This document shows, in pieces, positions 5,142 to 37,228 of a stretch of DNA of 64,000 bases. The stretch is from Methanobacteriota archaeon. Lineage in GTDB: Archaea > Thermoplasmatota > E2 > DHVEG-1. The translations under genes were made by a program, and so were the position numbers. Position 1 is the first letter of the stretch. Every line of letters starts with the position of its first letter. Below the pieces are notes generated by a model. The model was given only the letters and a program-made list of their open reading frames with translations, was not told the origin of the DNA and did no database searches. The stretch covers positions 85,519 to 149,518 of the forward strand of contig JAFNFT010000071.1 in assembly GCA_017885605.1 (NCBI GenBank), written 5' to 3'.

Positions 5142-5143
5142 AA

Positions 5144-9769: not shown

Positions 9770-9792
9770 AAAAAATTCCAATAAGTGATACC

Positions 9793-14540: not shown

Positions 14541-15013
14541 AATAAAAATTTGAAAACAAAAAGTGAGATCACACCAAGAACAAAACTGTACCGAAGGCCT
14601 GAAGAAAGTTTACCATCCATCATGAACCCTCCGATCATACCTGCACCAATACCCTGTGTAAAAACAAATGAACTCAATGCGTATTTCAACGCCACGGGAT
14701 CCACTTTATTCATCATGACACCAGCCATTTCAACCGTGCTGCTCTGACTCTTGAAAAATGAGGCGAACAGCGTGTTATTAAGAATCATAATTATTCCGAG
14801 GAACACAAAAAAACTCATGATAATTACAACGGTATAGGTAGCCATTTCCGATTTTCTCTGCTCCTTAATATTATTAATTTGATTGATTTCTTTTGCCGCT
14901 GCTTTAAAAACCTTTGACGTCATCCCCCCCATTCTCAATCCTGTATTTATCGAAACAACTATTCTTTTGACAATAGGAGATCTCATCCGTTCAGCAAAAT
15001 TCTCAAACTTCAT
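13955..15013 (-). repeat. Segmental duplication copy A (pilin 5-prime ~590 bp + tadC 3-prime ~480 bp); copy B at ~16695-17745
   Basis: The pilin N-terminal ~95 codons are essentially identical between 14225-14520 and 16950-17245. The tadC 3-prime 477 bp (14537-15013) is ~90% identical to 17260-17740 by eye. Confidence 0.6.
14537..15013 (-). pseudogene. 5-prime-truncated duplicate of the tadC/flaJ-like gene (C-terminal 158 codons only); may be expressed as a small 3-4 TM protein
   Basis: MKFENFAERMRSPIVKRIVVSINTGLRMGG... aligns residue-for-residue with the last 158 aa of the 586-aa protein at 17260-19020 (KVFENFAERMRSAIIKRIVVSINTGLRMGG...). Confidence 0.5.
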
Positions 15014-15032
15014 TTTTTTTTATCTCGCCTCT

Positions 15033-17282: not shown

Positions 17283-19020
17283 AAAGTGAAATCACACCAA
17301 GAACAAAACTGTACCGAAGCCCTGAAGAAAGTTTACCATCCATCATGAACCCCCCAATCATACCGGCACCAATACCTTGAGTAAAAACAAATGAACACAA
17401 CGCGTATTTCAATGCCACCGGATCGACCTTATTCATCATGGCACCAGCCATTTTCACGGTACTACTCTGACTCTTGAAAAATGAGGCGAACAGTGTATTA
17501 TTAAGTATCATAATTATTCCGAGGAACACAAAAAAACTCATGATAATTACAGTGGTATACGTAGACATCTCCGATTTTCTCTGCTCTTCAATATTATTAA
17601 TTTGATTGATTTCTTTTGCTGCTGCGATAAAAACCTTTGATGTCATCCCCCCCATCCTCAATCCGGTATTTATCGAGACAACTATTCTTTTGATGATGGC
17701 GGATCTCATTCGTTCAGCGAAATTCTCAAACACCTTTGTTACGGGAATACTCCAAGATAGCTCAGATTTCATTTTTTGTATTTCAGGGGTCAATCTTCCA
17801 TAACGGCCTTTTGATGAAATTTTTATTGCATCAAAAATGGTCATCCCTGAGGAGATACAGTTTCCCATTTCGACCACAAAATCTGGTAATCTTCGCTCAA
17901 TCTCACGCTGTTTTTGCGCTTGCTTATGACAATAAAAGGTAATAGGCCCTATGAAAACCAGGACGGACAGGAAAAAAACATCAAAAAAGAAGTAGGTGGT
18001 GAAATTCATATATTTGTAATAACTTAATACATAAATAATGCAGTAAAAAGAAAGCAATAAACCTGTTGAAAGAAGCAGAATTAAAATAAATGGTCTGTTT
18101 TTTTTATAAAAATCTTTCACTGAAGGTCTCTTCTTCGAATGAGGGTTTCTTATCTCTTCTATACTTGTTGATCGTATGAGAGCGTAATATCCACCATATG
18201 CTATGGGTAGAACAACGAACGAAAAAATAAACAAAATCTCTATAGTGAAACTTGAGGAACCACCAAAAAAACCCATCACAGAGATAATGATCACAAGAAA
18301 AATCGGAAACGCGACAAGCGTGGTGACAAATGTTTCTGCAAGAACCCCAAGAGTATCCAAGTTTTTCTTCCTTGCTAAAAATTCATCGGCCATGTACTGA
18401 TCTACAATGGTTGAAAGGTAAATATGAAGGTCACTACCTGATTGAATAGTACCGATTATCCCTTGGAGAAACGATTTGAATTTTTTTGAAGGAGTGTTTT
18501 CAAGGGCGTGTTTTAGCGCAGTAATCGTATCAATCCCCATGACATCGAGTTCTATGATGATTTTCTTTGCTTCTTGTTGTACTTCACCATAGATATCGAT
18601 TGTTGCAAAAGATCGAAAGATATCTGCGGGTGAAACACCCGCAATTGCCATGGTGCTGATAAAATTCACCGCATAAGGTAAGAATCTATCGATATTCGCG
18701 GCTCTTTTTTTGATATGAGAGTGCGGGATGTATTGACACATCACCCAGATGCTAAACGGCACAAGTGCAGGCAAAAGAATCGCAAGTAAGAGAGTATTTA
18801 ATGAAGGGAAAAAGAGATACAGGAGTAAAGATGGGATGATGGTGAGTATAAACCCCAGGAGCATTGTCATCAAAAACATCGAGAAGTACTCCTGGTATAA
18901 CATATTGATATCGGCTTGTTTTAATAGTATGTTTTTCTCTTGGAGCCGCTGTTTTGTTTTTATTGAAAAAAATCTATCAAATTTCCAGAGGCAGAAGTTC
19001 GAATATTTTGAGGATTTCAT
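17260..19020 (-). CDS. Type IV pilus / archaellum assembly membrane platform protein (FlaJ/TadC/PilC-like)
   Basis: 586-aa polytopic membrane protein with the typical FlaJ/TadC topology, immediately downstream of the secretion ATPase and overlapping it by 4 nt (ATGA). Confidence 0.7.
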   Translation of the reverse strand: MKSSKYSNFCLWKFDRFFSIKTKQRLQEKNILLKQADINMLYQEYFSMFLMTMLLGFILTIIPSLLLYLFFPSLNTLLLAILLPALVPFSIWVMCQYIPHSHIKKRAANIDRFLPYAVNFISTMAIAGVSPADIFRSFATIDIYGEVQQEAKKIIIELDVMGIDTITALKHALENTPSKKFKSFLQGIIGTIQSGSDLHIYLSTIVDQYMADEFLARKKNLDTLGVLAETFVTTLVAFPIFLVIIISVMGFFGGSSSFTIEILFIFSFVVLPIAYGGYYALIRSTSIEEIRNPHSKKRPSVKDFYKKNRPFILILLLSTGLLLSFYCIIYVLSYYKYMNFTTYFFFDVFFLSVLVFIGPITFYCHKQAQKQREIERRLPDFVVEMGNCISSGMTIFDAIKISSKGRYGRLTPEIQKMKSELSWSIPVTKVFENFAERMRSAIIKRIVVSINTGLRMGGMTSKVFIAAAKEINQINNIEEQRKSEMSTYTTVIIMSFFVFLGIIMILNNTLFASFFKSQSSTVKMAGAMMNKVDPVALKYALCSFVFTQGIGAGMIGGFMMDGKLSSGLRYSFVLGVISLFVFKFVF

Positions 19021-21029
19021 TTAGAACCGCCTTTTGCCTTTTCCAATACAACCTCTGGCTCTCGGCTATAGTCTGCTACAACCTTTCCGACTTCCTTATA
19101 CGAGCGCAGATTATTTTTTCTCATCCATTCCAATACAATAATTCTATTTTTAACCTCTGAAATGAGCTGCGCATCGCTCCATCCTTTCTTACTTTGAGTT
19201 CTATCAAGTAAGATGCTTTTTGCTTCTTTCTTAAAATGATCCTCTGATTCGGAAACCCATGAAAAAGGGATTGAAAAAATTAGTTTGTTCGTACTAGGCT
19301 CCATTTTTATTATTTCGATAACATTGGTGATTCTTCGAGCAGGTTTCCCATTTATCACAGTAGCTTTTAAAAACACGACAAGATTAAGGGAGATAAGAAG
19401 TGCTTTCGGCAAAGAAATAGGGGGATTCTCCAGCCTCTGAACCAACGTATGAATATCACTTGCATGAATTGTTGAATATGAAATATGACCAGTAGCCATC
19501 GCTTGGAAAAGAGCATAGGCTTCTTGCCCACGTATCTCACCTACGATTACAACTTGTGGCCGCTGACGCAGTGCAGCCCTAGTAAGATCAAACATATCAA
19601 TATCTTTACTAGTTTTATGTTCTGCAGATTGAGAAAAACCAGTTCTCGTAGTACTCGCTATCCAGTTCTCATGGGGGAGCATCAGTTCTCTGGTATCCTC
19701 TATGGAAAAAATCTTATATGCAGCAGGTAAAAAAAGTGCAAAAGCATTCAATGTGGATGTCTTCCCAGAAGCAGTACCCCCACAGAAGAGAATAGATGCA
19801 CCATTTTCAATGGCAAGCCAGAAATATGCCGCCATCTCCAATGACATCGTGCCGGTATTAATCAAATCAATTGGAGTGAAGGGATCCTCTCGAAATCTCC
19901 TAATGGTAAATGTTGAAAATGGCGTCACGGTTTTCGCCAACATTACCGATAGCCGAGACCCATCCGCAAGTTTCCCATCGATAATCGGTTCATAAATTGA
20001 GATTTGTTTACCGCAAATCTGAGCCAATTTCACCGCAAAAGAATCCAATTCATCAGGATTTTCAAAGACGATGTTGCTCTTTATCGATTCATATGTTTTA
20101 TGATAAATAAAAATAGGGATATTAGGACCGTCACAAGAAATATCCTCAATACCTTCGTCATGCATCAATATATCGATTTTACCATATCCTGTGAACTCTT
20201 GAAAAATATAGTAAAAGATTTTATCCTTGGAGATTTCGCTGAGTTTAATATGGCCATCAACAATAATTTTTTGTAATGATTCATCCAGCTTTATTGATTT
20301 TTCAACGGTGTTACTTTCGAAAACATCAATAGTGGAACGTAATTCAAACAACTCAAGGAGTTTGTTTTTTATTTCTTGTTCCTCTTTTTCCAGCGAAGGC
20401 TCATGTACCTCATAGACGTAGGTCTTACTATTTTTATCAAACTTGATTACCCGACTTCCAAGACCTTTCCATCCAAAACCTGTTCGTTCGTCGTCTGCCT
20501 TCTCGCTGCTTTTTTTCTGTAACCCTTGTTGATCGTTTGATACAAAATCTTCTGATGCATTTAGAGTTTTTCCCCTTTGTGGTATTGGTAATTCTTTGGT
20601 TTTTTCAGGTGGTTTCATTACTTGTTGTAATTTTTGTGGTGCCATTGATTCTTTTTGAACCCCTGCGTCATCGTTTTCTCCTATCAACCTCGTGCGGAAC
20701 TCTGAGTCATCCGTCTGGTCTATATTTGCATCTCTTGTTTTTATCCCAAGAATATTTTTTAGTTGTCGTTCCACAGAGGCCATAAATTTAAAATTAGGGT
20801 TGTCGGTGGTGGGAATATCTGAAATAACGTTTCCTGATTCAACGGTTTTTTCATTAAAAATATCCTTTGAACATGTAACAAGCTCAAATTCCTGAGGTTT
20901 TTCCTCTATTTTTCCCAGCATTTCCTCTTTTCGAAGTATTTTTATTATCTCAGGTTCGTCCTTCATTGAAACCTCCAAAAAACAACTTTTTGTATTTGGA
21001 GAAAACAGAAATCTTCTTGACAGTATCAA
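19017..21029 (-). CDS. Type IV pilus assembly ATPase (FlaI/TadA/GspE-VirB11 family) with a long acidic N-terminal extension
   Basis: Walker A FCGGTASGKTSTLNAF, Asp box/Walker B RPQVVIVGEIRGQEA, His box ATGHISYSTIHASD. The ~190 aa before the conserved core are low-complexity and acidic. Confidence 0.85.
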   Translation of the reverse strand: MILSRRFLFSPNTKSCFLEVSMKDEPEIIKILRKEEMLGKIEEKPQEFELVTCSKDIFNEKTVESGNVISDIPTTDNPNFKFMASVERQLKNILGIKTRDANIDQTDDSEFRTRLIGENDDAGVQKESMAPQKLQQVMKPPEKTKELPIPQRGKTLNASEDFVSNDQQGLQKKSSEKADDERTGFGWKGLGSRVIKFDKNSKTYVYEVHEPSLEKEEQEIKNKLLELFELRSTIDVFESNTVEKSIKLDESLQKIIVDGHIKLSEISKDKIFYYIFQEFTGYGKIDILMHDEGIEDISCDGPNIPIFIYHKTYESIKSNIVFENPDELDSFAVKLAQICGKQISIYEPIIDGKLADGSRLSVMLAKTVTPFSTFTIRRFREDPFTPIDLINTGTMSLEMAAYFWLAIENGASILFCGGTASGKTSTLNAFALFLPAAYKIFSIEDTRELMLPHENWIASTTRTGFSQSAEHKTSKDIDMFDLTRAALRQRPQVVIVGEIRGQEAYALFQAMATGHISYSTIHASDIHTLVQRLENPPISLPKALLISLNLVVFLKATVINGKPARRITNVIEIIKMEPSTNKLIFSIPFSWVSESEDHFKKEAKSILLDRTQSKKGWSDAQLISEVKNRIIVLEWMRKNNLRSYKEVGKVVADYSREPEVVLEKAKGGSK

Positions 21030-21127: not shown

Positions 21128-21311
21128 AATATCTTACCAATATAAAATATTAACGGATGAAAAATTACGAGCATATTTTTGAACGATAAAACTGAAACGG
21201 ATACATACCTCCAAAGAACAATGGTAGAACAGATTGAAGCTTAGAATATCTTTGGTATTATATGTTTTACCTCAAAATTACCTCAAAATATTTTTTTGTT
21301 ACAAGAATGTT

Positions 21312-22616
21312 TTAAGCATATTTTCTAATTACCAAAATGATAATAACAATTGCTATCCCCAAAAATGTGAAAATAAGGTAATCAAATAAAGGAGATCTCT
21401 GTAAATCTTTACCGGGCGAGGTTGAAATAAAGATGGTGACATATTCTGTCGCTGTATCACTAACACCATCGTTATCAATAACCCTTAGAGATATCTGATA
21501 TGTTCCTCCATGAGAATAATTATGACCAGGATTCCTCACATTCGAAGTTACTCCATCCCCAAAATCCCAACTCCAAGAAACCACTACTCCGTCAGCATCT
21601 AATGATGTATCGGTGAACAATATCGTATCATTAATCTTTGGAAGAAACGGTGAAAAAAACGTAAACATAGCGGTAGGCCCCACATTTAACGCGGATATCT
21701 TCCGAGAAACCTGATTTACTGCTTGATCATCATCAACAATACTCAAAGTCACAATATACGATCCATTATCAACATACTGATGTGTCACATTCTGCAATGT
21801 AGACGTATTTCCATCACCGAAATCCCAAAACCATGAAACAATATGGCCATCGAAATCTGTCGACGTATCATTAAAAGTCACGATTTGTAGATCAGTAGGA
21901 ATAAGGGGAGAAAAACTAAAATGAGCAACAGGCGGTACCGTAAACGGTTTCATCAACGGATGCATATCAAAACTACCAGCACCAGCAATACGATAGGAGG
22001 TATCACCAAATCCATCCCTATCACCATCCACACCGGTATAATCATCCCAATAGTTTCCACCGTGGAGATAACCAGCATCCCAGGAGTTCCTCCCCAGATC
22101 ATACGCATTCTGCGTATTATTCAAAAAATTATTATTATAGATAACGTTGTTAAAAACACTTCCTAAAAACATACCGTACTCTGCATCTCGAAAAGTGTTT
22201 TCCGTAATAATACTACCAGACGAATTATATATTCTAATACCACAGGTACCATTTTTGATTGTACAACCACATATCGTCACATTATCAGCAGAAATATTTA
22301 CAACATCTTTAGTTCCACAGCCATCAATAATCACATTTCCTTTACCAGTACGATTTACATTGATAGTTTTATTGATAACTATATTTCCACGATAGATCCC
22401 TGCAAAAACATATACAGTACCGTTTTCCGTTACCGCATCAATACCATCTTGAATAAACTGAAATGGATGACCAGATGAACCATCCCAAGGACCCACAGTA
22501 TTGTTACCATTAACAAAAATAGGAGACCCCGCGGCATGTACCGTATCAAATAGAAAAACAAATACAAATGAAAATACCATTAAAAAAACTACGAAGTATA
22601 CCAACTTTTTTTGCAT
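21312..22616 (-). CDS. Cell-surface protein: signal peptide, right-handed parallel beta-helix region, two PKD domains, C-terminal TM anchor
   Basis: N-terminal MQKKLVYFVVFLMVFSFVFVFLF...VHAAG. Beta-helix-like repeats NVTICGCTIKNGTCGIRIYNSSGSIITENTF. Two WxWDFGDG PKD motifs (SWFWDFGDGNTS, SWSWDFGDGVTS). C-terminal LIFTFLGIAIVIIILVIRKYA. Confidence 0.75.
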   Translation of the reverse strand: MQKKLVYFVVFLMVFSFVFVFLFDTVHAAGSPIFVNGNNTVGPWDGSSGHPFQFIQDGIDAVTENGTVYVFAGIYRGNIVINKTINVNRTGKGNVIIDGCGTKDVVNISADNVTICGCTIKNGTCGIRIYNSSGSIITENTFRDAEYGMFLGSVFNNVIYNNNFLNNTQNAYDLGRNSWDAGYLHGGNYWDDYTGVDGDRDGFGDTSYRIAGAGSFDMHPLMKPFTVPPVAHFSFSPLIPTDLQIVTFNDTSTDFDGHIVSWFWDFGDGNTSTLQNVTHQYVDNGSYIVTLSIVDDDQAVNQVSRKISALNVGPTAMFTFFSPFLPKINDTILFTDTSLDADGVVVSWSWDFGDGVTSNVRNPGHNYSHGGTYQISLRVIDNDGVSDTATEYVTIFISTSPGKDLQRSPLFDYLIFTFLGIAIVIIILVIRKYA

Positions 22617-22974
22617 GTTTCTCCGCGCAACAATAAAATCATACTGTCTTTATATAATATGATTTAAAAAAATATAGAGTGATATACTTTTTGTTCATTT
22701 TATATTTGCAATGAAATGAGTCTAACATAAATAAGGGATGTGAGAAATACTTAGATATTGTTAAACTCATATCATTGCTTATCCGTATGGGTTCAATCCA
22801 ATTGTTATTGCAACAATTAATACCATAGGTATAACAACAGAAATTCCTCTATTATCATCTTTCACAAGTTTTCTATGTGCTTTTATCCTCATCACCACCT
22901 ATCAAATTAAAATTACGATAAAATTACAGAAGCATTACATAATATAAATATTTTTTGGTAGGCAGTTGAAAAAT

Positions 22975-24758: not shown

Positions 24759-27700
24759 CTACATTTCTCCTTTCAATTTTTCCTCCAATTCCGCTATTCT
24801 TTTTTTCAATTCAATCATTTTTAGTTCTCTATTTACTGTTAATTTTTTATATAGTTCAAGGGCATCAATTTCCTCCTTTAACTTTTTTTCAAGTTGTTTT
24901 TGCATGGTGATATCTCTGACAGTTGCCTGGAGAAATACCTTTCCACCCTGCACGACCCTTGATAAGAGCACCGTTGCGAAAAAATCCTCGCCATTGATTC
25001 GTTTGTGTGTCCACTCGAAGAATTTGGATCCATTGCGCATTGCTGTTTCAATCATCTCTTTAGCCTTCTCTGCTGAAGAACGTCCGTCTGGTTGGCGTTC
25101 GGGAGATAAATTCTCAGGTCCTTTGGAAGTGAATTCCTCTTCGTTCTTAACCTTGAACATTTCTAGTGTTGCCGGGTTTCCAGTTGTGAAATTCCAGGTC
25201 GGAGGCTCAAGGGTCATGATAGCGTCACGGGAGCTTTCAAAAAGAACCCGATGCCGTTCTTCACTATCCAGTAGCGCTTCCTCCGACCGCTTACGTTCGG
25301 TGATGTCTTTTGTTATAGCTACGAATGATAGTGGATTGCCAGAGGCATCTCTGATTAGGCACGCTGAAAGTTCTGCTGGAAACTCCTGACCGTCTTTCGT
25401 CAATAGGGTGTATTCTAAATTCTTTACCGATTCCGACTCAAGGGTTTCCTTTAAACTTTCTTTTGCCCTTTCGAGGTCTTTCGGTGAAAATAATTCTAAG
25501 GCATTTTTACCGATTAATTCCTTTTTATTAAAGCCATGCAACATTGATGTTGCTTGGTTACATTCGATAATGTTTCCATTTAGATCCGTGACGGTGATTG
25601 CGTCAGGAGATGAATCAAGTATTCGCCTTAGTTTTTCTGCGCTTTCAATGACTTCTTTTTCTGCCTTCTTGCGTTCGGTGATATCGGTGACCGTCCCAAT
25701 CCATCTGATGGGATGTCCGTCCGGCGTCCTTGCTACGGCGCCCCGCGCTGTCCACCACCGGCAGGTCCCATCTTTCGTTCGAACACGATATTCGATAGCA
25801 TAGGGCATGCGTTCGTCCAGATACGCCTGAACTGCAGCCGCAACGCGCTTCTTGTCCTCCGGATGGATCAAGTCCGTCCAAGCGTCAAATGTTCTCGGGA
25901 ACTCGCCTGGACCATAACCGAGCATCTCATCAATTTTTCCAAACCACTGAACGCTGTGTTGCAGGTCCCATTCGTACACCGCATCGTTTGAGGTCTCGGC
26001 GGCAATGCGAAAGCGTTCTTCTGTCTCGTGCAGTCTCTCCTCCATCCGCTTGCGCTCGGTGATATCTGCAAACGATGCCTCCATGCAGACTGGCTTACCA
26101 GCAGCATCCACTGTCATGCTTGCCGAAACCTGAACCTCAAAGAGAGCGCCATTCTTTCTATGAGCTACCAATTCCCCGATCCAACCTCCGCGAGTGCGCA
26201 ACGCATCTATGACTTCTGCTGCTTTTTCGCCCATCTGCCAGAATTCCGTAGCCGATTTCCTCAGTATTTCTGCTGAGGAACTATATCCCCACAACTTGAG
26301 AAATGCGGGATTCACATAGTTCAGGTTTCCCTGTAAGTCGGAGATTGCAATGGCGTTTATCGCCGATTCGATGACCCAATCCTTTACCCGCAGCGCCTCC
26401 TCCGCCTGCTTGCGCTCGGTGATGTCTCTTAGAATGCCCATCGTCCCTATTGGGTTACCCTTATCATCCTTGATAATAAAAGCAGATAAAATGGCAGGAA
26501 ATTTTTCCTTATTTTTTCTGATGTTTATTACGTCACCACTCCATCTCTCTTTCACAGCTATATCCTGCATAACTTTTTTGGCAACCATTGGATCGGCATC
26601 GAGTTCAGCTATGTTTAGCTTCAAGAATTCCTCAGAGGTATATCCAAATGCGCTGATAGCGGATTCATTTGCGTAAGTAATATTTCCCTTCACGTCAGTA
26701 AGCATAAAGCAATCAAAGGCGCTAGCGATAGCATCGGAAAATATCTTAATTTTCTCCTCTGCTTTCTTGCGCTCGGTGATGTCACGAGATATTGAAAGGA
26801 TCACGTGTTTCCCTGAAGCATCCTTCACAAGTTTCGCTGCGGTATCATAGATATGATACACACCTGATTTATCCCTTAGATGATATTCAAAACGAGAGCT
26901 CGTTCCTGGTTTATACATTCCAATGACTAATTGTTTTAACATGGAGGTAATACTTATCTTATCTTCAGGATGTAGTACGAAGAAACTATCTTGTCCAACC
27001 AGTTCATCAGGAGTATAACCTAACGATTTAATCGAGGGGCTCACATAACGAAAAGTTTTATCAATATTAGTGATAATTATCAGATCATTTGTATTTTCTG
27101 TAATCAACCGATACTTTTCTTGGCTCTCTATCAACGCTCCTTCTGCTTTCTTGCGCTCGGTGATGTCCCTTCCATATAAATTCACATATCCTTCGTCTGC
27201 TACGGGTGAAACGACAAATGAAAAGATTTTATCATTAATTTCTTCTTCTTCTTCTTCTGCTTTCAAATTCTTAGATACAAACTTTTTTCTGATTATGTTA
27301 CGCCATCGCTCTGGGACATCTTCTCCGATATTCGTTTTCCAAAAATCGAGTATCTGAAAACCCGCTTTATTACTATATACAACCTCACCATCCTTTTTAA
27401 TACGCAACACTGGATTAGGGTTCTCCGCTGGGAACTTTGCTAACCTTTTAATTTCTTCCTCTGCTTTCTTGCGCTCGGTGATATCCTGAAATACTATTCC
27501 TTGACTCCCTTCTTCTTCTGCTACTGTTTTTTTCACAACGAAGGAGCGAACATTAAAATCTTTTCCTCTAAATTTCAATTCCTTAGACCTACCATCTACT
27601 TGTAAAAGGTTTTCAAAAACAGCGAAAATCTCCGATGGTACCACATCTTTTAGATTCCTCGTGATATACTCATTTTTCGTTTCTCCAAACGCAGAAATAA

Positions 27701-29906
27701 AAGATTTGTTTACATACTCAATATGTTTTCCTTTCACAATCAATATCGGATTTGGATTACTTTCAAGAATATTCTCATTATAGTCTTTTAAATATCTAAT
27801 TTCTTCTTCTGCTATCTTCTGTACTGTAATATCTCTTGCAATTAATTGGATAGTTCTCTTCCCGCCAGGATGGATGATGGGGACATAAATATTTTGAAAA
27901 TATCGTCCTGCTCTTTCGTCCTCGTATTCTTGATTTTTCATTTCTTTAAGTGCCGTTCTGGCGATTTTTGCGCGTTCTTCAGCTATTTCTCTTGGAAGGA
28001 TATCAAAAATATTTTTACCAATTAACTTATCAGCTGGAACACCTATACTTTTTACCATCATTGGATTCATAGCTAGGATATTCCCTTTTTCATCAGTTTC
28101 AATGATTAAATCAGGAGACGAATCAAATAATCTTCTGAATTTTTCCTCAGATTCTTTTAATATTTGTTTCGCTTGCTTTTGTTCAGTAATGTTGTGCGCT
28201 ATCCCTTGAATAGCGTAGGGTTTTCCATCGCGATACACTTTCTCTGCAGTTGTTTCTATGTCGATAATCGTACCATTCTTTGTCTTCAGTCTGTATTCGG
28301 TCGATTCTTTTTGATGGCCATATTTTTTGATCTCGTTCAGCGCTTTCATTGCTTTCCATATTTGCCCGCCATCAAGTATTGAAGAAAAATTAAGCGAACC
28401 CAATTCTTCCTTACTGTAACCCAATAGTTTTAATGCCGTAGGATTCGCATCAATGAAATTTCCTTTGAGATCATGAAGATATACTAATTCAAATGAACTA
28501 TTAAATAACGCTTGATAACGTTCCTCGTTCTCCTTTGGGGTCGCGGTGATTTTTTCATGTTCTGTTATAGAACCAGATGCGTCTTCATCCGTTGTATCCG
28601 TTGTTACAGAATTCACAGCTAAGCCAACACTTTCCGCAGACGTATTCTCCGATGGCATCTCCTCCTTTAAATCTGTGTTATCCATATCGGAAATTGACTG
28701 AATGGGGAGCGTAAACAGAAATGTGCTACCGATGCCTTCTGTGCTCTCGAACCATATATTTCCACCGTGTAATCCTACAATACCTTTGGAGAGAGCAAGA
28801 CTAAGACCTACTCCACCAAACAGTCTATCATCACCAGAATCAGCCTGATAAAACGCATCAAAAATCATTCCCTGTTTATCCTTTGGTATGCCTTGTCCGA
28901 AATCCTGCACTTCAAACAAAACATCTTCCTTTTCTTTTCTTGTTTTTATATTTATTGTTGAACCATCTGGCGAGAACTTTATGGCATTGTCTACAAGGTT
29001 CAACAAAACTTGTTTAATCCGCTCACCATCAATCATCAAATCTGGAAGATCTTTTTCTAGATTAACATTAATTGTCATCTCTTTTTTATTCGCAAATGGT
29101 TCCATCGTTTTGGTTATTTCTTCCACGAGTGCTCTTGGATTTACTTTTCGTGGAATGAATTTCATACTCCCTGACTCCAAACTCGAAGCATCAAGGATAT
29201 TCTGGATTATCTGATCAAGACGATTTGTGTTACGCAAGATTACCTCAAGACCTTTCATCTGTCCTTCGTTAATTTCACCTAGAGTCTTTTTCATCAACAT
29301 CTGTACATATCCTTTTATGGACGTTATTGGAGTGCGTAATTCGTGGGACGTGGTTTTGAGAAAAGTTTTCTTGGTTTCATTTAGTTTTTGCAATTTTACA
29401 TTCTGCGACCAAAGATTTTTATTTAATTCATCATACATTTTATTAATTTCGGTAACATCCTTTAGTATAGATATGGAGTACAGAATCGCTCCATCAGCAC
29501 CTCTTACAGCACTTGCACTGAGCAACACTCTCCGTTTCTCCCCCTGTTTTGTCTCAATAACCATTTCTTCGTTATCTATTTCGCCGGTTTCTTTCCATTT
29601 GGAGAAGAGGATCTTCATCTTTTCATGGGATTCAGGAGCATAAATAGTGGTGAGATTTTTTCCTAGTAATTCCTCTTTTTTATAACCTAGATTCGTAAGC
29701 GCTGTTTTGTTTATTTCAAGAATTGTTCCTTCAGGCGAAACCATGTATTCATATAGCGGCGCGTTTTCAAAGAATTTTTTAAAACATGTATGTTCAAGGT
29801 TTTGATCAGAGGTATTATTTTTAGAGGATTCTTTTGATGAAGAAAAAAGTCTCCCATGTTTTTCTTCTTCTTTCAGTTCTTGAACAATTTCATAGTTATT
29901 CTTCAT
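24759..29906 (-). CDS. Giant cytoplasmic multi-PAS sensor histidine kinase (1715 aa): PAS1-HisKA-HATPase_c-acidic linker-10 further PAS domains-C-terminal coiled coil
   Basis: H-box TSHELRTPITSIKGYVQML and G-box GGVGLSLALSKGIVGLHGGNIWFEST lie at aa ~180-400. Eleven (D/N)IT(E/Q)(R/Q)K PAS junctions are counted along the protein. Confidence 0.9.
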   Translation of the reverse strand: MKNNYEIVQELKEEEKHGRLFSSSKESSKNNTSDQNLEHTCFKKFFENAPLYEYMVSPEGTILEINKTALTNLGYKKEELLGKNLTTIYAPESHEKMKILFSKWKETGEIDNEEMVIETKQGEKRRVLLSASAVRGADGAILYSISILKDVTEINKMYDELNKNLWSQNVKLQKLNETKKTFLKTTSHELRTPITSIKGYVQMLMKKTLGEINEGQMKGLEVILRNTNRLDQIIQNILDASSLESGSMKFIPRKVNPRALVEEITKTMEPFANKKEMTINVNLEKDLPDLMIDGERIKQVLLNLVDNAIKFSPDGSTINIKTRKEKEDVLFEVQDFGQGIPKDKQGMIFDAFYQADSGDDRLFGGVGLSLALSKGIVGLHGGNIWFESTEGIGSTFLFTLPIQSISDMDNTDLKEEMPSENTSAESVGLAVNSVTTDTTDEDASGSITEHEKITATPKENEERYQALFNSSFELVYLHDLKGNFIDANPTALKLLGYSKEELGSLNFSSILDGGQIWKAMKALNEIKKYGHQKESTEYRLKTKNGTIIDIETTAEKVYRDGKPYAIQGIAHNITEQKQAKQILKESEEKFRRLFDSSPDLIIETDEKGNILAMNPMMVKSIGVPADKLIGKNIFDILPREIAEERAKIARTALKEMKNQEYEDERAGRYFQNIYVPIIHPGGKRTIQLIARDITVQKIAEEEIRYLKDYNENILESNPNPILIVKGKHIEYVNKSFISAFGETKNEYITRNLKDVVPSEIFAVFENLLQVDGRSKELKFRGKDFNVRSFVVKKTVAEEEGSQGIVFQDITERKKAEEEIKRLAKFPAENPNPVLRIKKDGEVVYSNKAGFQILDFWKTNIGEDVPERWRNIIRKKFVSKNLKAEEEEEEINDKIFSFVVSPVADEGYVNLYGRDITERKKAEGALIESQEKYRLITENTNDLIIITNIDKTFRYVSPSIKSLGYTPDELVGQDSFFVLHPEDKISITSMLKQLVIGMYKPGTSSRFEYHLRDKSGVYHIYDTAAKLVKDASGKHVILSISRDITERKKAEEKIKIFSDAIASAFDCFMLTDVKGNITYANESAISAFGYTSEEFLKLNIAELDADPMVAKKVMQDIAVKERWSGDVINIRKNKEKFPAILSAFIIKDDKGNPIGTMGILRDITERKQAEEALRVKDWVIESAINAIAISDLQGNLNYVNPAFLKLWGYSSSAEILRKSATEFWQMGEKAAEVIDALRTRGGWIGELVAHRKNGALFEVQVSASMTVDAAGKPVCMEASFADITERKRMEERLHETEERFRIAAETSNDAVYEWDLQHSVQWFGKIDEMLGYGPGEFPRTFDAWTDLIHPEDKKRVAAAVQAYLDERMPYAIEYRVRTKDGTCRWWTARGAVARTPDGHPIRWIGTVTDITERKKAEKEVIESAEKLRRILDSSPDAITVTDLNGNIIECNQATSMLHGFNKKELIGKNALELFSPKDLERAKESLKETLESESVKNLEYTLLTKDGQEFPAELSACLIRDASGNPLSFVAITKDITERKRSEEALLDSEERHRVLFESSRDAIMTLEPPTWNFTTGNPATLEMFKVKNEEEFTSKGPENLSPERQPDGRSSAEKAKEMIETAMRNGSKFFEWTHKRINGEDFFATVLLSRVVQGGKVFLQATVRDITMQKQLEKKLKEEIDALELYKKLTVNRELKMIELKKRIAELEEKLKGEM

Positions 29907-30175
29907 AAAAAACCTCTCTAATATTTTAAAGGGTTTTCTCCTAAAATTGTAGCATCCACCTCAACGTCACAAAACAGCATCATTTCGTAACCCCTCATTT
30001 CCTTTTTCCCGCCACAATTAAATTACGCAAACATTACAATATAATACTTCTTTCTTATTTAACTTTAATGGACGAATCAAAAAAGTAAAAACAAAAAAAT
30101 CATCAGATGATCCTTATCTGATATGCAACAAAGTTGAATCAGGACGATATTTGGAGGAAGCAGCAATGTCTGGAC

Positions 30176-30456: not shown

Positions 30457-31848
30457 ATGAAAAACCCAGCAATAAGAAAACTAGGTCTCGATGTAATCAA
30501 GGAAGCCCCTTGGGGGACACATCTCTGTTTTTTTTACGACTCTATCAATGACTACTTAGATATTATAAAACCATATATCAAAGCAGGTTTAGAAAATAAT
30601 GAATTTTGCGTGTGGATTATTTCTAAAGACCTCGAGAAGGAAAAGGCATTTGAGATTTTACAAACAGCGATTCCTACCCTTGATTGTTATCAACGAAAGA
30701 AACAAATCGAGATTCTTTCACATTCTGAATATTATTTAAATAATGGAAGATTCGATGGAGAAGCAGTTATCACGAATTGGGAAAACAAACTTGACAACGC
30801 TCGATCCGCAGGATTTGATGGATTACGAGTAGAAGGTGACATTTCATGGGTTGGAACGAATCGGTGGAAACTCTTTAAGGATTATGAATTTGAACTTGGA
30901 AATGTAATTTTCAATAACAAGATTTTAGCTATTTGTTCGTACCCTCTTAAAAAGATTGGAGCAAGAGAAATTATTGATGTTATAGAAAATCATCATTTTG
31001 CTCTAATCAGGCGTAATGAGAAATGGATATATGCAAAGAGTTTTGTAGATATGATGGATAAATTACTCGACATCCAAAATCACATTAAAGGAGAAAATAT
31101 TGAATTAATAAAACAGGGAATAGTACAGAATACCCTTTTTAACGTATCATCCCATGAGATAAAAACACCTTTAAGTTCAATTAAAGGCTATACTCAAATG
31201 TTGATAAAAGAACAATTCGGTACAATTAATGAGCAACAAAAGGAGGTTCTCGAGATCCTGAAACGAAATACTGATTATTTGAACCACTTAATTAATAATT
31301 ATCTTAATTTAGTTCAACTACAAACAGGCACAATGAAATTCATAGTGGAGAAGATTCCTATAAAGAGTCTAATCAAAGATACTATGGATATTATGTCCCC
31401 GTTGGCAGATTCTAAAAAAGTTAAAATAGATGTCCGATTGGCAGACGGATTACCACCGCTTAGCATTGATGTTGATAAGATAAACCAAGTTCTAATAAAT
31501 ATCATTGGTAACGCTATTAAATTTTCACCTGAGGGGGCATCAATCAATATTAATGTGAAGAAAAAAAACGAGTATATCCTTTTTGAAATTCAGGATTTCG
31601 GATTGGGTATACCAAAGAATGAGCATGAAAAAATCTTTGGCATGTTTTTCCAATCTGAATCAATTCGGGATAAAAATATAAAGGGCTCTGGGCTGGGGCT
31701 TCCCATTTCAAAGGCTATCGTTGAAGCGCATGGGGGACAGATATGGGTTGATAGTAAAATAGGCAAAGGAAGCAAGTTTAGTTTTACACTGCCCATCAAG
31801 TCTGTGAAAGCACGTAAGATTAATCTCATAAAGGGCCTACTTGAGTAA
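30457..31848 (+). CDS. Cytoplasmic histidine kinase with N-terminal MEDS-like sensory domain
   Basis: [35 protein letters not shown]...[14 protein letters not shown] fits the MEDS pattern (conserved His and FY near the N-terminus, GLRV...W at the end). H-box [20 protein letters not shown]-box [24 protein letters not shown]. Confidence 0.75.
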
Positions 31849-32115: not shown

Positions 32116-32505
32116 CTACTGTTCCAACATAGTACGTACTCTGTTCAACAAATCATCCACATCAAAGGGTTTGGTGATATAATCGATAACCTTCAAATCA
32201 TTTAAAATCTGTTTTCCCTGTTCCTTAAAATTTGCAACGGTAAAAAACGCAATCTTGATATCCTTCAAACCAGGATCTTTCTCGGCTCTGATCGTTTTGC
32301 ATACTTCCCTTCCGCTCATCCCTGGCATAAACATGTCAAGCAATATAAGATCGGGTCTCTCGTCATCTTTCACGCTCCGTAATTTATCCAGTGCTTCTTT
32401 CCCATTAAAAGCGATGATGGTAGTATACCCTTCAGATTTCAGAAGTTTTTCAACCAGCTCCACGGTATCCCTTGTATCATCAACAATCATAATTTTTTTT
32501 ACCAT
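32116..32505 (-). CDS. Single-domain response regulator (CheY-like receiver)
   Basis: IMIVDDTRDTVEL...LILLDMFMPGMSGREV...FTVANFKEQ...YITKPF. Receiver-domain pattern with D-D-K residues. Confidence 0.85.
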   Translation of the reverse strand: MVKKIMIVDDTRDTVELVEKLLKSEGYTTIIAFNGKEALDKLRSVKDDERPDLILLDMFMPGMSGREVCKTIRAEKDPGLKDIKIAFFTVANFKEQGKQILNDLKVIDYITKPFDVDDLLNRVRTMLEQ

Positions 32506-33275
32506 TTTTCCTCACCCAGCACTCTATCCACAAGCATTGAAATGTCGTTTATGGTTTGTTTATCAAGAGATTCTATTTTTCCAATAAAAAAACCCTGGGC
32601 TCCATTTGATTTAATCAGGGAAGCAGTATCTTGGACAAAGAGCGGCATCTCAAATTTTTCAATATTCTTTACCGCAGAAACGTTATCCACAATAACGCAT
32701 TTTATATCTTTTTCCTTAAGTATCCTATCCAATGAGCTTTTGATATCACTTGGATTATTTTTTACCGTTACACAGTTTTTGGCGTTGCAATCTCCACCTG
32801 ATGCATCTAAAAATTGAAAGCCGGACGTATCTATTCCATACAAATCGAAAACATCAACTATCTTTTCGTACGGTACTTCCAGCGTCAAATAACAGATGCC
32901 CCGTATATTTTTAACAAGATCCACGAGCTTGCCTTCATATTTGTCCTTGGATGTGATTAAAAATGCTTGGCCAAAATCTGAAAGATTTTTGATAAGCGTT
33001 TTCAGTTTGTACAGTCCGATCACGAGGAAGAAAATAAAGACAATGGTGAATAACTCAGGAGCAATCGTTTGAGGTAAAATTAAAAATAATTCAAATATCT
33101 TAAACGTTTCTAACAAGACAAACGCTATCATGCCTATGAGAAGAAAAACAAAGCCTTGTCGTATCGCAGATTTGGTCCTTTTCATTATGGCAAACACTAT
33201 TCCAATGGTAAAGAGACCAAAACAGAATCCTATTATACTTAGGAGTCCTGATGCGGTCAACAGATCCATGTTCAC
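32499..33275 (-). CDS. Membrane protein (4 TM) with C-terminal cytoplasmic DUF835-like domain
   Basis: Four N-terminal hydrophobic helices. Then ICYLTLEVPYEKIVDVFDLYGIDTSGFQFLDAS...KCVIVDNVSAVKNIEKFEMPLFVQDTASLIKSNGAQGFFIGKIESLDKQTINDISMLVDRV, matching the DUF835-like pattern of the small paralogs. Overlaps the receiver gene by 7 nt. Confidence 0.45.
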   Translation of the reverse strand: MNMDLLTASGLLSIIGFCFGLFTIGIVFAIMKRTKSAIRQGFVFLLIGMIAFVLLETFKIFELFLILPQTIAPELFTIVFIFFLVIGLYKLKTLIKNLSDFGQAFLITSKDKYEGKLVDLVKNIRGICYLTLEVPYEKIVDVFDLYGIDTSGFQFLDASGGDCNAKNCVTVKNNPSDIKSSLDRILKEKDIKCVIVDNVSAVKNIEKFEMPLFVQDTASLIKSNGAQGFFIGKIESLDKQTINDISMLVDRVLGEEKW

Positions 33276-33475
33276 TGTCTACCCGCAGTTTTTATGAATT
33301 TTTGGAGATCTTTCACAGAAACAGTGAGAACCTCGCTCGTAGCAGGTTTACGATCCAACATTTTTCTCACGCTATCTCGGACCGCTTCAGATCTATTTGG
33401 ATAGGTGCCCTGTTGTATCAAAACATCAATTCTCTCCAACATATTTTTTGTCAATCTTATTTGAAGTGTTTCCAT
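33272..33475 (-). CDS. Ribbon-helix-helix (CopG/Arc/MetJ-like) transcriptional regulator
   Basis: IRLTKNMLERIDVLIQQGTYPNRSEAVRDSVRKMLD is a textbook beta-alpha-alpha RHH. The 4-nt ATGA overlap with the downstream membrane-DUF835 gene implies an RHH / DUF835 / receiver operon. Confidence 0.6.
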   Translation of the reverse strand: METLQIRLTKNMLERIDVLIQQGTYPNRSEAVRDSVRKMLDRKPATSEVLTVSVKDLQKFIKTAGRQ

Positions 33476-33599
33476 TTTTTATCACGTCCATTTTTCTTTT
33501 TTTGATATTATTTTTGTGCTGCTTATACCATTACAACACAATTACGTATAAGCGTGCATGTTTTATAAAATTATCTCTTTCGAAAAATCAGGATTTTTT

Positions 33600-34199
33600 T
33601 CATTTAAAAAATTTCTCCAATTCAATAAACTTCTTCAAATCATCCTCGGAAACCTTCAATTTTGATATCCGCCTGTGCTCATGAAACAATCCACCGACCG
33701 TAATAATCAATGCCCCGCCCATGACATACTCGATCAATAGTTGCTGATTCGCTGACACCTCAACGACACTAAAGGATTTACTCGCTTCCACATATTTCGT
33801 CCCATCAAGCGAGGTAACATTTGCTTTCACGAGATAGACCCCACCTTTAATGGTTTCTGGTAATTGTATCTCCTCGGAAAAAGAACTTAACGTTTCTATT
33901 GCCACGGTTGTACTTTCAACCAAAATACTGTTGTCTTTTAAATCAGTTACCTCGTAGGTAACCTTCACATCAACCCTGCCCGATGATTTTGAGTTTCTGA
34001 TCTCCGTAATAATGTGGAACGATTGACCTGGTCGAAATGTATCGCCCTCTACGACCGACACGGAGATCGCTAGCGATGCAGTAGATTCTGAAATGACCGT
34101 TGCCCCACACAGGAGTGAAAAAAGAAAATATGCGACGAACAAGAGTATGCAAATCTTTCCCAAGCTACTTTTGAACCCATGGTGCAATCCCATAGCCAC
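33600..34199 (-). CDS. Hypothetical secreted/membrane-anchored protein (N-terminal TM or signal, beta-rich ectodomain, C-terminal TM)
   Basis: N-terminal ICILLFVAYFLFSLLCGATV and C-terminal GGALIITVGGLF followed by a basic tail. No recognisable motifs. Confidence 0.4.
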   Translation of the reverse strand: MAMGLHHGFKSSLGKICILLFVAYFLFSLLCGATVISESTASLAISVSVVEGDTFRPGQSFHIITEIRNSKSSGRVDVKVTYEVTDLKDNSILVESTTVAIETLSSFSEEIQLPETIKGGVYLVKANVTSLDGTKYVEASKSFSVVEVSANQQLLIEYVMGGALIITVGGLFHEHRRISKLKVSEDDLKKFIELEKFFK

Positions 34200-35456: not shown

Positions 35457-35720
35457 ATGATAACAACTGTAACAACTACGACAACCACTGTCGTTGCGAC
35501 AACTACCACGACAACGGCAGCAATATCGATAACTGCCTCCTTGGCAATAATAGGCACAATTGTTTTAATATCACTCCTCATAGCAAAGGAGCTTTTATCA
35601 TCACATGAGGCAGAACGAACACAGTTTTTATCGGACAGACTCAGCATCGCCATCGTACCACTATTGATGATGTTTGCGATGATTGTCATAACAAAAATAG
35701 TGGATGTTCTTCATTTTTAA
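35457..35720 (+). CDS. Small Thr-rich membrane protein (poly-Thr N-terminus, 2 predicted TM helices)
   Basis: SD-like gagggtgatgag 7 nt before the ATG. TTVTTTTTTVVATTTTTT, then AAISITASLAIIGTIVLISLLIA and LSIAIVPLLMMFAMIVITKIV. The antisense ORF 35429-35689 is its Val-rich mirror; which strand is real is uncertain. Confidence 0.25.
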   Translation: MITTVTTTTTTVVATTTTTTAAISITASLAIIGTIVLISLLIAKELLSSHEAERTQFLSDRLSIAIVPLLMMFAMIVITKIVDVLHF

Positions 35721-36577
35721 ATCAGAACGAGCGGGCAGATTATAAAAAGAAATACGTTCACTACTGTGTGTGATATACTTACTCCTATAACTGTTTTGGT
35801 TGTTTTTACGACGACGGCGTATAATCCACCGATAGAAAAAACAAGCAGCACGTCCAGCAAAGAGAGATTTCCAATGTGAAGCACCGCGAAAATAAGGGTG
35901 ATAAAAAATATGCCCGGCCATACTCCAAGGATGTCTGTAGATTTTTTTTGAAGAAGTCCTCTGAAGATTAATTCCTCCATGAGTCCCGTTGCTATGAACA
36001 AGATCAGAACAGCTACGATGATGTTTTCTATGGAAAATGAGTCAATAAAAGGGGTAGGCCTTAGTATATAATACTCTGCGAATCCTAAAGGTATTCCAAG
36101 CAGTATGATGCCAACCTCTATGGGAATGTGTTTTTTGGTTGGAAGCCGTAGGCCGCATTCCTTGATATTGATTTTTTGCTGAAATAATAAGACGAAAAAT
36201 GCAAGATAGACTGCAACGCCGATGATGATAAACCATTGTATGCGTGGAAAATGAGAGAGCGGCATGACCAGGCTTAAGATGCGTATGAGCGGGACAAGGG
36301 TGAGAGCAAGGAGTATTGAGGTAAGTTTTACCCTGTTGTCTATAAGTTTCTGTACTAGGCTTGAAGGTTTTTTCTTCTCTTTGATCATGAGCCATTGTAA
36401 TTTGTTTATTGACATTTTTTCTTTATTTATGAATCCCGAATGAATGAAGAGCAGACAGAGAATGATGATGTGGAAGAATATCCCTGCCTGTGGACTGACA
36501 TATGCGACAGTAATTTCTGCGAGAGTTATGAGAATGAGATACAGTAAGAGGTACTGTCCGTCCGATATTTTGTTCAT
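35717..36577 (-). CDS. CPBP family intramembrane glutamic endopeptidase (CAAX protease / Abi domain)
   Basis: Motif 1 GLMEELIFRG and motif 2 FAVLHIGN. Multi-TM. Confidence 0.8.
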   Translation of the reverse strand: MNKISDGQYLLLYLILITLAEITVAYVSPQAGIFFHIIILCLLFIHSGFINKEKMSINKLQWLMIKEKKKPSSLVQKLIDNRVKLTSILLALTLVPLIRILSLVMPLSHFPRIQWFIIIGVAVYLAFFVLLFQQKINIKECGLRLPTKKHIPIEVGIILLGIPLGFAEYYILRPTPFIDSFSIENIIVAVLILFIATGLMEELIFRGLLQKKSTDILGVWPGIFFITLIFAVLHIGNLSLLDVLLVFSIGGLYAVVVKTTKTVIGVSISHTVVNVFLFIICPLVLI

Positions 36578-36793
36578 TCAGACAAGGAATCGATATAGTG
36601 CATATAAAAATTACGGGGAAATTACGCATGGTGGACAATTTTAGTCTTTTAAAACCACTATCTTTATAAATAAAAAAAATATTACATTAGTAATTGTATC
36701 GTAATGTATTTGTGTTGCTCTCTTGCAGCACAAGTGGGGGTGATGTAATCGATCACATACTACCCGAAATACACTAGGATGGATAATCAAACT

Positions 36794-36813
36794 GAGATGA
36801 GATGAGATGAGAT
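36794..36813 (+). repeat. Pentanucleotide microsatellite (gagat)4 immediately 5-prime of, and overlapping, the ATG of the 36812 gene
   Basis: ctgagatgagatgagatgagatgagtgg read directly. Contains four ATGs spaced 5 nt apart. Confidence 0.6.
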
Positions 36814-37228
36814 GAGTGGTGAGGAAGCCTGGCACAGGGGAAAATGTTCTCATGTAGATTGTGGTAGAGAACACAGGATATGGCTCCCTGAAACCATCGC
36901 TTCTTCAGATGATACGAGAACTCCTAGTAGTACTGGAAAATCAGACGTCTCGTTACACCACTGGTGCGTGCTTTGCGGATGCATACAAAATATCTCTGAT
37001 GATCGCCCTAAAAAAATGGGTTATTGGATAAATGTTCTTTCGAAGATGGCGCGAGAATATCATCTCACAGACTGCCAGAAACGACTTGTTATTAAAGCAT
37101 TGGAAACCAATGAATTCTTTGAGGACCTGTACGGAACCACAGGTTCTGCACAACAGGGGGTATTTGTTAAGGTAGTACAAAACTATAGTAATCTAGGTGA
37201 AAACACGATTGATTCATTTATCTTTTAG
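36812..37228 (+). CDS. Hypothetical protein with Cys/His cluster (possible zinc ribbon)
   Basis: CSHVDCGREH and HHWCVLCGC. No further similarity recognised. Confidence 0.35.
   Translation: MSGEEAWHRGKCSHVDCGREHRIWLPETIASSDDTRTPSSTGKSDVSLHHWCVLCGCIQNISDDRPKKMGYWINVLSKMAREYHLTDCQKRLVIKALETNEFFEDLYGTTGSAQQGVFVKVVQNYSNLGENTIDSFIF

Follow-up and report, generated by a model that had tools for sequence, protein, structure and literature searches.

A 64,000-nucleotide stretch of a metagenome-derived archaeal genome of the Thermoplasmatota (GenBank assembly GCA_017885605.1, contig JAFNFT010000071.1, positions 85,519 to 149,518; hereafter the window) contains a unit of four minus-strand genes, numbered 0 to 3 from upstream to downstream. 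They encode a bitopic beta-sandwich membrane protein, a small ribbon-helix-helix (RHH) DNA-binding protein, a protein that carries an inactivated KaiC domain (iKaiC) behind three transmembrane (TM) helices, and a stand-alone CheY-like receiver (Table 1). This four-gene unit is a conserved membrane signalling module of an uncultured Thermoplasmatota lineage. On balance, the module is probably linked to two-component signalling and contains an autoregulating RHH protein that recognises a GTAAT box.

The original prediction for this region, made from the DNA sequence, described genes 1, 2 and 3 as a trio of minus-strand genes overlapping by 4 and 7 nucleotides, which the list of open reading frames (ORFs) and the sequence itself bear out. 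Gene 1 ends and gene 2 begins within GTGA (...CAG TGA over GTG AAC ATG), and genes 2 and 3 share ATGGTAA (...TGG TAA over ATG GTA). Gene 2 has an alternative in-frame ATG start two codons downstream (33267-33269), with which a 2-nucleotide gap replaces the 4-nucleotide overlap; the three genes are tightly coupled whichever start holds. Shine-Dalgarno-like sequences precede gene 3 (GGTGA) and gene 1 (GGACGTGAT).

A scan of species-representative genomes yielded 14 loci, all in Thermoplasmatota metagenome-assembled genomes, some of them titled Thermoplasmata or Thermoplasmatales and one Methanobacteriota; one more locus, L017, was found besides. As determined by tblastn, the order gene 0, RHH gene, iKaiC-TM gene, receiver gene is present in all 13 loci that are not cut off and in L017. 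Gene 0 lies upstream of the triad formed by genes 1 to 3 in 14 of 15 Thermoplasmatota loci, and the remaining locus begins within gene 2. The junctions of the triad overlap or nearly abut in the same 13 loci and in L017, at gene 2 protein identities down to 47%. Because both the order and the tight junctions recur at such low identity, the arrangement is not due to chance. Conservation of the triad in other genomes, which had been proposed as a check, is thus established; the original prediction was to be given up if the fold of gene 2 failed and the triad was not conserved, and both the fold (described below) and the triad hold.

A receiver gene follows gene 2 in every locus, including the divergent loci L019-L022, in which the iKaiC-TM gene again directly precedes it. 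In L021 (4143-5793) and L022 (216-1513), members of a divergent branch with a higher guanine-cytosine content, gene 0 overlaps the iKaiC-TM gene by 4 nucleotides and no RHH gene lies between them. The constant partner in the divergent branch is gene 0, not the RHH gene, a feature that the original prediction missed. The arrangement in L019-L022 implies that the oldest core of the module consisted of the beta-sandwich protein, the iKaiC-TM protein and the receiver, the RHH gene having been added in the main clade. The opposite situation is found in L015 (5998-6360) and L016 (22-410), which contain an RHH homologue (68% identical, with the same C-terminal tail and a GTAAT box upstream) while the rest of the module is gone. 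Downstream of the RHH gene come first a 42-codon ORF, which looks like the remnant of a histidine kinase gene (C-terminal end of the ATPase domain), and then a cupin gene. This arrangement looks like a decayed copy of the module.

The RHH protein matches Pfam RHH_1 (PF01402) with 29.7 bits over residues 4-42 (cut-off 20.5), as expected from its original designation as an RHH DNA-binding protein. Its beta-strand, METxQIRLT, is identical in all RHH orthologues, and its closest solved relative by sequence is the RHH domain of NikR (E 6.6e-4). The best NCBIfam match is CdrS (NF058555), at 45.9 bits over residues 1-46 of 67 against a cut-off of 100; the scores for the aCcr1 family (NF053762; 15.2 bits, E 0.015, cut-off 60) and for the ParD antitoxin (TIGR02606; 28.5 bits, cut-off 46.2) also fall short of their cut-offs. 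The ftsZ2 gene does not lie next to gene 1, and no FtsZ/tubulin match was found in any window ORF scanned. Thus, gene 1 is not a CdrS orthologue, and membership of the CdrS or aCcr1 families was rejected on the grounds of sub-threshold scores and missing ftsZ2 synteny.

A candidate operator for this protein emerges from the alignment of RHH upstream regions of the window and of L002, L004, L005, L006, L008, L009 and L015. These regions differ widely apart from two invariant blocks, a predicted archaeal TATA box and, approximately 18 nucleotides downstream at fixed spacing, the sequence GTAATTG-N3-TGTAATG, which contains a GTAAT-N6-GTAAT box. Tandem RHH dimers, such as those of the Arc, MetJ and omega repressors, would fit direct repeats spaced by one helical turn. 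The box occurs nine times in the window against 0.22 expected, a number reached in none of 100 shuffles, and 33 times in 185 kb of related loci against 0.63 expected. Eight of the nine window boxes are intergenic, although intergenic DNA makes up 7% of the window (binomial P 4e-9); the box at 12714-12729, which lies within a coding region, was set aside as a probable chance occurrence. The window boxes adjoin TATA-like sequences and are oriented with the downstream gene, except that at 36610-36625, where the TATA-like sequence comes after the box. Two observations tie the box to the RHH gene: in L015 and L016 it precedes this gene despite the replacement of the downstream genes, and in L019-L022, where the RHH gene is absent, no box was found in a sample of about 11 kb.

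Other boxes mark the promoter regions of the KaiC-KaiC-PAS-histidine kinase gene, a PKD/NosD surface protein gene, the PAS kinase and a divergent gene pair (Table 1). This pair, which encodes a CAAX protease and a 138-residue Cys-rich protein with no family match, is conserved together with its boxes (35717-37228) in L004 (11279-11933) and partly in L008 (12669-12684). A GTAAT site with one mismatch (21266-21281) precedes the pilus ATPase operon. Taken together, these promoters look like a regulon of signalling and surface genes. In L006 (3928-4088), L017 (4626-4786) and L018 (2504-2664), the space between an archaellin gene and an extra receiver gene, itself located upstream of gene 0, holds three phased GTAAT repeats and a further box. 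This placement is a hint that the regulon of these genomes extends to motility genes.

The box of the RHH operon is enclosed by an 8-bp inverted repeat (GCTTATAC...GTATAAGC) in the window (33522-33553, minus strand) and in L001. An RNA hairpin around the box was considered and rejected as probably not functional: L002-L009 have the GTAAT repeats but not the stem, and the box is therefore read as a DNA site. A search of the whole window against Rfam at gathering thresholds found no known RNA element. Scans for sigma-70 promoters and terminators, which are not relevant to archaea, gave results not above those of shuffled sequences.

The original prediction presented the gene 2 product as a 4-TM protein with a cytoplasmic DUF835-like domain. 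Its membrane part has three helices instead: an AlphaFold model (pLDDT 84) places them at about residues 2-33, 36-63 and 72-99, ahead of an alpha-beta domain, and Kyte-Doolittle hydropathy also yields three hydrophobic segments. With three TM helices, the N-terminus should therefore lie outside and the C-terminus inside the cell. A database search returned 84 relatives of about 255 residues (43-97% identity), all unnamed. Their membrane part is variable except for a conserved KRTK loop, and R33, T34 and S99-F105 are invariant; the cytoplasmic part is highly conserved, with the motifs LSDFGQAF, CYVTLExPY, DASG, KNNPxDIK, VIxDN, QGFFIGK and INDIxMLVDK.

The cytoplasmic domain has the alpha-beta fold of RecA/KaiC proteins. 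Against Pfam KaiC (PF06745) the window protein scores 18.7 bits, below the cut-off of 26.6, and 27 of 28 family members match individually at E<=1 (best 4.5e-7). In contrast, the hidden Markov model (HMM) of DUF835 (PF05763, cut-off 33.1 bits) gave no match at E<=1 for the window protein or for any of the 28 family members, and membership of DUF835 was rejected on this result; DUF7504 (cut-off 27 bits) likewise has no direct match in the window protein or the family members. Of the claimed DUF835-like domain, the RecA/KaiC-like fold thus stands, but the family assignment does not. The Walker A P-loop ([AG]xxxxGK[ST]) is absent from all 84 relatives and the equivalent place is occupied by CYVTLExPY. 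The domain is called inactivated KaiC because it combines a KaiC fold with the lack of a P-loop, a combination that points to a scaffold or switch rather than an ATPase.

Profile comparison by hhalign relates the gene 2 family to the soluble 189-residue protein encoded at 3966-4535 (probability 93.8%, E 1.7e-7), which scores above threshold for DUF7504 and weakly for KaiC and DUF835. This homology supports the link, suggested earlier, between gene 2 and the other DUF835-type modules of the window. A profile search of 1.8 billion representatives found about 25 full-length clusters and, further out, hundreds of soluble proteins of 170-190 residues with DUF7504, KaiC, DUF835 or DUF7090 domains, mostly DUF7504; one remote relative found by profile, P0323, passes the DUF835 cut-off with 36.8 bits. 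The closest named relatives of the domain are DUF7504/KaiC-like. Going by these profile relationships, the gene 2 domain is an iKaiC in the sense of Galperin et al. (2018), with a kinship to DUF835 at the level of the superfamily and not of membership. The hhalign comparison with the active KaiC protein encoded at 10906-11853 gave a 32-column match with a probability of 1.7%; because this match is weak, the superfamily tie rests on the fold and on the iKaiC relatives. A sequence search of the PDB with the gene 2 family profile returned nothing meaningful.

The gene 0 protein is modelled with an N-terminal TM helix (or signal anchor), an extracellular seven-strand beta-sandwich whose structural matches are generic immunoglobulin-like domains, a C-terminal TM helix and a short cytoplasmic tail helix. 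It ends right after the last TM helix with ...KLKVSEDDLKKFIELEKFFK. Past its RHH fold, the RHH protein has about 20 further residues, ending ...LTVSVKDLQKFIKTAGRQ, and this tail is outside the residues aligned with CdrS. The two tails have a peptide in common, L-x-V-S/T-x-x-D-L-x-K/R-F-I. When six-frame segments of at least 40 residues from the window and 18 loci (199,039 residues) were searched with the expression [VI]S..D[LF]..[FY][IVL], for which 0.52 matches are expected, only the RHH and gene 0 tails matched. Of 120 RHH family members, 119 have the peptide, which is located 4-6 residues before the C-terminus, and the tail is the best-conserved stretch of the gene 0 protein across orthologues. 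In gene 0 homologues the Ser of the tail is often replaced by Thr, and the gene 0 tails of L001, L003 and L005 carry Thr or another substitution. The conserved Ser/Thr might be phosphorylated. Since two neighbouring products have the same rare C-terminal peptide, a common binding partner is the simplest reading.

The receiver encoded by gene 3 matches Response_reg (PF00072) with 81.8 bits (cut-off 30.2, E 5e-23). In an alignment with Escherichia coli CheY, the residues corresponding to D12, D13, D57, T87, Y106 and K109 are conserved in all 15 orthologues. The CheY-like receiver of the original prediction therefore has a family score above the cut-off and all phospho-acceptor and switch residues, and gene 3 appears to encode a functional stand-alone receiver.

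Phosphorylation of this receiver by neighbouring orphan kinases had been put forward as a possibility. Histidine kinase genes do adjoin the module, but the adjacent MEDS kinase is not a conserved neighbour, whereas a PAS-rich kinase is: in most loci its gene, which has its own promoter, comes after the receiver gene on that strand (directly after it in L003). This PAS kinase is the likeliest cognate kinase of the receiver, a putative assignment. Full-length orthologues of the MEDS kinase are adjacent only in L001 and L002, besides the window. The MEDS kinase gene looks like a recent insertion because it is limited to the window and its two closest relatives, while L003 lacks it at this place; its product is a possible second kinase for the receiver. 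In the PAS kinase, the HisKA-HATPase core is near the N-terminus (approximately residues 179-403) and about nine PAS domains come after it, the reverse of the usual order of sensor followed by kinase; roughly the last 170 residues fall outside the assigned domains.

Table 1. Positions of the module, its predicted regulatory sites and the associated kinase genes in the 64,000-nucleotide window
Feature	Position	Strand	Description
Gene 0	33600-34199	minus	199-residue bitopic beta-sandwich membrane protein
Tail peptide VSEDDLKKFI	33624-33653	minus	Cytoplasmic tail of gene 0 protein
Predicted archaeal TATA box of RHH operon	33561-33570	minus	TTTTATAAAA; invariant block with varying flanks in 8 aligned upstream regions
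GTAAT-N6-GTAAT box, predicted RHH operator	33530-33545	minus	GTAATTGTGTTGTAAT; expected over predicted transcription start
Gene 1	33272-33475	minus	67-residue RHH DNA-binding protein
Tail peptide VSVKDLQKFI	33293-33322	minus	C-terminus of RHH protein, outside RHH fold
Gene 2	32499-33275	minus	258 residues, GTG start; 3 TM helices and iKaiC domain
Gene 2, N-terminal part	32979-33275	minus	Three TM helices, cytoplasmic KRTK loop, juxtamembrane LSDFGQAF
Gene 2, cytoplasmic part	32514-32969	minus	Inactivated KaiC/RecA-like domain (iKaiC), no P-loop
Gene 3	32116-32505	minus	129-residue stand-alone CheY-like receiver
Codon of phospho-acceptor Asp57	32335-32337	minus	Within gene 3
MEDS-HisKA-HATPase histidine kinase	30457-31848	plus	Convergent with operon; Pfam MEDS 131.7 bits
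PAS-rich histidine kinase	24759-29906	minus	1715 residues; Pfam HisKA, HATPase_c, 9 PAS stretches
GTAAT-N6-GTAAT box	30022-30037	minus	PAS kinase promoter region; box and flanks conserved in L001 and L003
Three GTAAT repeats, 11-bp phase	6409-6435	plus	Upstream of KaiC-KaiC-PAS-histidine kinase gene 6575-9769; candidate regulon site
Three GTAAT repeats, 11-bp phase	22912-22938	minus	By TATA-like box, upstream of PKD/NosD surface protein gene 21312-22616; candidate regulon site
Two GTAAT-N6-GTAAT boxes	36610-36625; 36690-36705	minus; plus	Divergent promoter region of CAAX-protease gene and 138-residue Cys-rich protein gene

In the mechanism proposed here, a two-component phosphorelay would be linked to a small RHH repressor via protein-protein contacts instead of a DNA-binding response regulator. 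RHH dimers would sit next to one another on the phased GTAAT repeats, covering the transcription start, and would repress their own operon together with a small set of signalling and cell-surface genes. Phosphorylation of the receiver would come from the neighbouring PAS kinase, perhaps also from the MEDS kinase, and the receiver may dock on the iKaiC domain as in the fusions of receiver (REC) and iKaiC domains of other archaea. A second adjacency of this type in the window, a receiver gene (3352-3795) followed by the iKaiC gene at 3966-4535, was counted in favour of a REC-iKaiC contact. The iKaiC domain, or its complex with the receiver, might bind the shared tail peptide; competing with the gene 0 tail, the repressor would then be either tethered to the membrane or set free. 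The extracellular domain of gene 0 could supply a second, outside input. The complete chain, from kinase to receiver, to iKaiC scaffold, to an RHH protein held or released, and finally to the GTAAT-box promoters, is a tentative proposal that falls just short of probable. A more specific version assumes a partner switch based on peptide mimicry, in which the RHH repressor copies the gene 0 tail and both compete for one site on the nucleotide-free iKaiC scaffold with an affinity set by the phosphorylated receiver; this version is somewhat unlikely.

Several observations weigh against the proposed chain. The module of L021 and L022 has no RHH gene, which shows that the core as such does not include a transcriptional output. 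The gene 0 tail in these two loci (...LFKLSEESLRRRAEK) lacks the K-F-I part of the shared peptide, and the RHH protein of L015 retains its tail though no iKaiC gene is adjacent. The partner of the tails could also be the receiver or another protein, or the two tails could pair together. In L011-L014 the METVQIRLT recognition strand is kept, yet the DNA ahead of the RHH gene contains no exact box; either the operator drifted in these loci or a different factor uses the box. The lack of boxes in L019-L022 is limited to the small sample of about 11 kb.

One alternative is a plain autoregulated operon, in which the RHH protein represses nothing but its own promoter and does not physically contact any other product of the module. 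In this it would resemble many RHH proteins encoded by the first gene of an operon. The target of the iKaiC protein, the beta-sandwich protein and the receiver would then be something other than transcription (for example, pili, the archaellum or envelope processes), and the shared tail would reflect an unrelated common function such as oligomerisation or turnover. However, the box is found at five or more other promoter regions of the window and at several in the related loci, which favours a regulon, and the same rare C-terminal peptide in two adjacent products at every locus is hard to explain without a common partner; the overlap of the gene junctions also speaks against this alternative, which is unlikely. 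The box itself could serve a different transcription factor, or could be a promoter element common to the whole lineage, the RHH gene being simply one of the genes in that regulon, an explanation that overlaps the other rivals. It would account for the frequency of the box and for L011-L014, where the recognition strand is kept without an exact box, but not for the persistence of the box with the RHH gene in L015 and L016 despite changed neighbours. In addition, direct repeats in 11-bp phase suit tandem RHH dimers, most window promoters have no box, none is found in the glycan cluster at 37-64 kb, and the related aCcr1 box shares the core at the same promoter position (PMC9976878). A different factor is decidedly unlikely on these grounds.

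In the version of the mechanism that follows the original prediction, a membrane DUF835 protein would be accompanied by a receiver that is phosphorylated by nearby orphan kinases and, in this state, binds the RHH protein as its direct DNA-binding output. The conserved triad, the intact receiver, the five histidine kinases of the window and the relationship of the iKaiC domain to DUF7504/DUF835-type proteins such as that at 3966-4535 agree with this scheme, whereas the null result with the DUF835 HMM in 28 members and the presence of three, not four, TM helices do not. Nor does it take account of the conserved gene 0 or of the tail peptide that two of the proteins share. REC is joined to iKaiC in known fusions, which argues for a REC-iKaiC contact, and the sole reported RHH-REC fusion, RHH-HisKA-REC of Lokiarchaeum, is of a different type (PMC5847659). 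Direct binding of the receiver to the RHH protein is thus very unlikely. Finally, a small RHH gene in first position with a 4-nucleotide overlap to the next gene is reminiscent of a type II toxin-antitoxin or addiction module, with the RHH protein as antitoxin and the overlapping membrane protein as toxin; some sources label homologues 'antitoxin ParD1/3/4', and there is the weak ParD match. But that match is below threshold, the RHH domains of CdrS and NikR score higher, and the partner has a dead-KaiC fold unlike known toxins. PADLOC returned nothing for the first three proteins and only weak receiver-domain matches for the fourth, and no mobile-element genes were seen among the annotated neighbours. 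Furthermore, the same neighbourhood with receiver and kinase is found in all loci recovered, at identities down to 47%. A toxin-antitoxin or defence system was rejected on the family scores and the PADLOC result, and an addiction module is extremely improbable.

Among known systems, the small RHH cell-cycle regulators CdrS of Halobacteria and aCcr1 of Sulfolobales resemble gene 1 in being stand-alone RHH proteins of about 55-70 residues. CdrS is a global regulator that binds 18 sites (PMC8406309), and cdrS is located immediately upstream of ftsZ2 and co-transcribed with it (PMC7439475). The aCcr1 box, AGTAATACN, contains GTAAT on our reading and is said to resemble the CdrS motif (PMC9976878). 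Gene 1 differs from both regulators in scoring far below their cut-offs, in not being located by ftsZ2, in its additional conserved C-terminal tail, and in belonging to an operon with signalling genes. REC-iKaiC regulators (REC-DUF835, iKaiC-REC and MEDS-REC) are known from Methanomicrobia, Thermoplasmata and Thaumarchaeota (Galperin et al. 2018, PMC5847659). They likewise pair a receiver with an inactivated domain of the KaiC superfamily, in part in a related lineage (Thermoplasmata). The module described here, however, has separate proteins encoded by overlapping genes, an iKaiC domain on three TM helices with no DUF835 or MEDS HMM match, and, in addition, an RHH protein and a beta-sandwich protein.

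Post-translational modulation of a transcription factor by a KaiC-superfamily protein has precedents in the control of cell-surface or motility genes. GvpD acts on the activator GvpE in haloarchaeal gas-vesicle regulation. A second such pair is that of the KaiC-like protein CirA and CsmR in Haloferax volcanii (PMC13286277). GvpD and CirA are soluble and keep their P-loops, whereas the domain described here is membrane-bound, lacks a P-loop and would act on an RHH transcription factor of the same operon. The proposed logic also resembles membrane sequestration and partner switching as known from the Mlc repressor of E. coli, which is held by PtsG, and from anti-sigma/anti-anti-sigma switches: a membrane protein would titrate a DNA-binding regulator according to phosphorylation state, and a competitor would share the docking determinant. 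There is no homology to these systems, and the mechanism proposed here is drawn from the shared peptide and gene order only. The single-domain archaeal KaiC/RecA-like proteins PH0284, SSO2452 and FlaH/ArlH bind nucleotide through Walker A; they are soluble and share 8-14% sequence identity with gene 2, which has no Walker A.

Full-text literature searches gave no earlier description of this combination of genes, and the sole paper in which they found DUF835, or the combination of KaiC with RHH and receiver, is the 2018 census of archaeal two-component systems (PMC5847659). The membrane anchoring of iKaiC, its operon with an RHH gene, the shared tail and the predicted operator thus appear to be new, although each part is of a known kind. 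Archaea contain many stand-alone receivers and almost no DNA-binding response regulators. The conclusion of the census was that signalling must use protein-protein contacts; it also noted that most REC-only regulators are located outside conserved neighbourhoods, which prevented an inference of their function (PMC5847659). The module is a conserved neighbourhood that places a REC-only receiver beside an iKaiC domain, a repressor with a recognisable predicted operator and a candidate docking peptide. Its four proteins are small and heterologous expression should be possible, which makes the path from receiver to promoter directly testable. Further, for a lineage that metagenomes alone have revealed, it predicts a regulon made up of kinases and surface proteins. 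If true, the partner switch would, for the first time, provide a worked-out path to transcription for an archaeal response regulator of the REC-only type, and a defined role for an inactivated KaiC domain, that of a peptide-binding switch.

Several other regions of the window encode signalling and surface functions. The receiver gene at 3352-3795 and the soluble iKaiC gene at 3966-4535 belong to a segment (3352-6337) that continues with a second soluble iKaiC gene (4587-5141, weak DUF7090 match) and a gene for a helix-hairpin-helix protein (5144-6337). A dense KaiC-based signalling cluster follows at 6575-11853. It starts with a 1064-residue protein in which two KaiC domains are fused to PAS domains and a HisKA-HATPase kinase core, and continues with two more small iKaiC proteins (9793-10380 and 10361-10930) and a single-domain KaiC protein with an intact family score (10906-11853). 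Besides T2SSF membrane proteins and a T2SSE ATPase, a type IV pilus-like locus on the minus strand (12789-21029) encodes two large proteins that combine an archaeal pilin N-terminus with DUF2341. The long same-strand surface glycan cluster on the plus strand (37316-64000), which has no GTAAT boxes, encodes many GT4 and GT2 glycosyltransferases, epimerases, dehydratases, PIG-L and WbqC proteins, a B12-radical SAM enzyme and a Wzt-type ABC ATPase.

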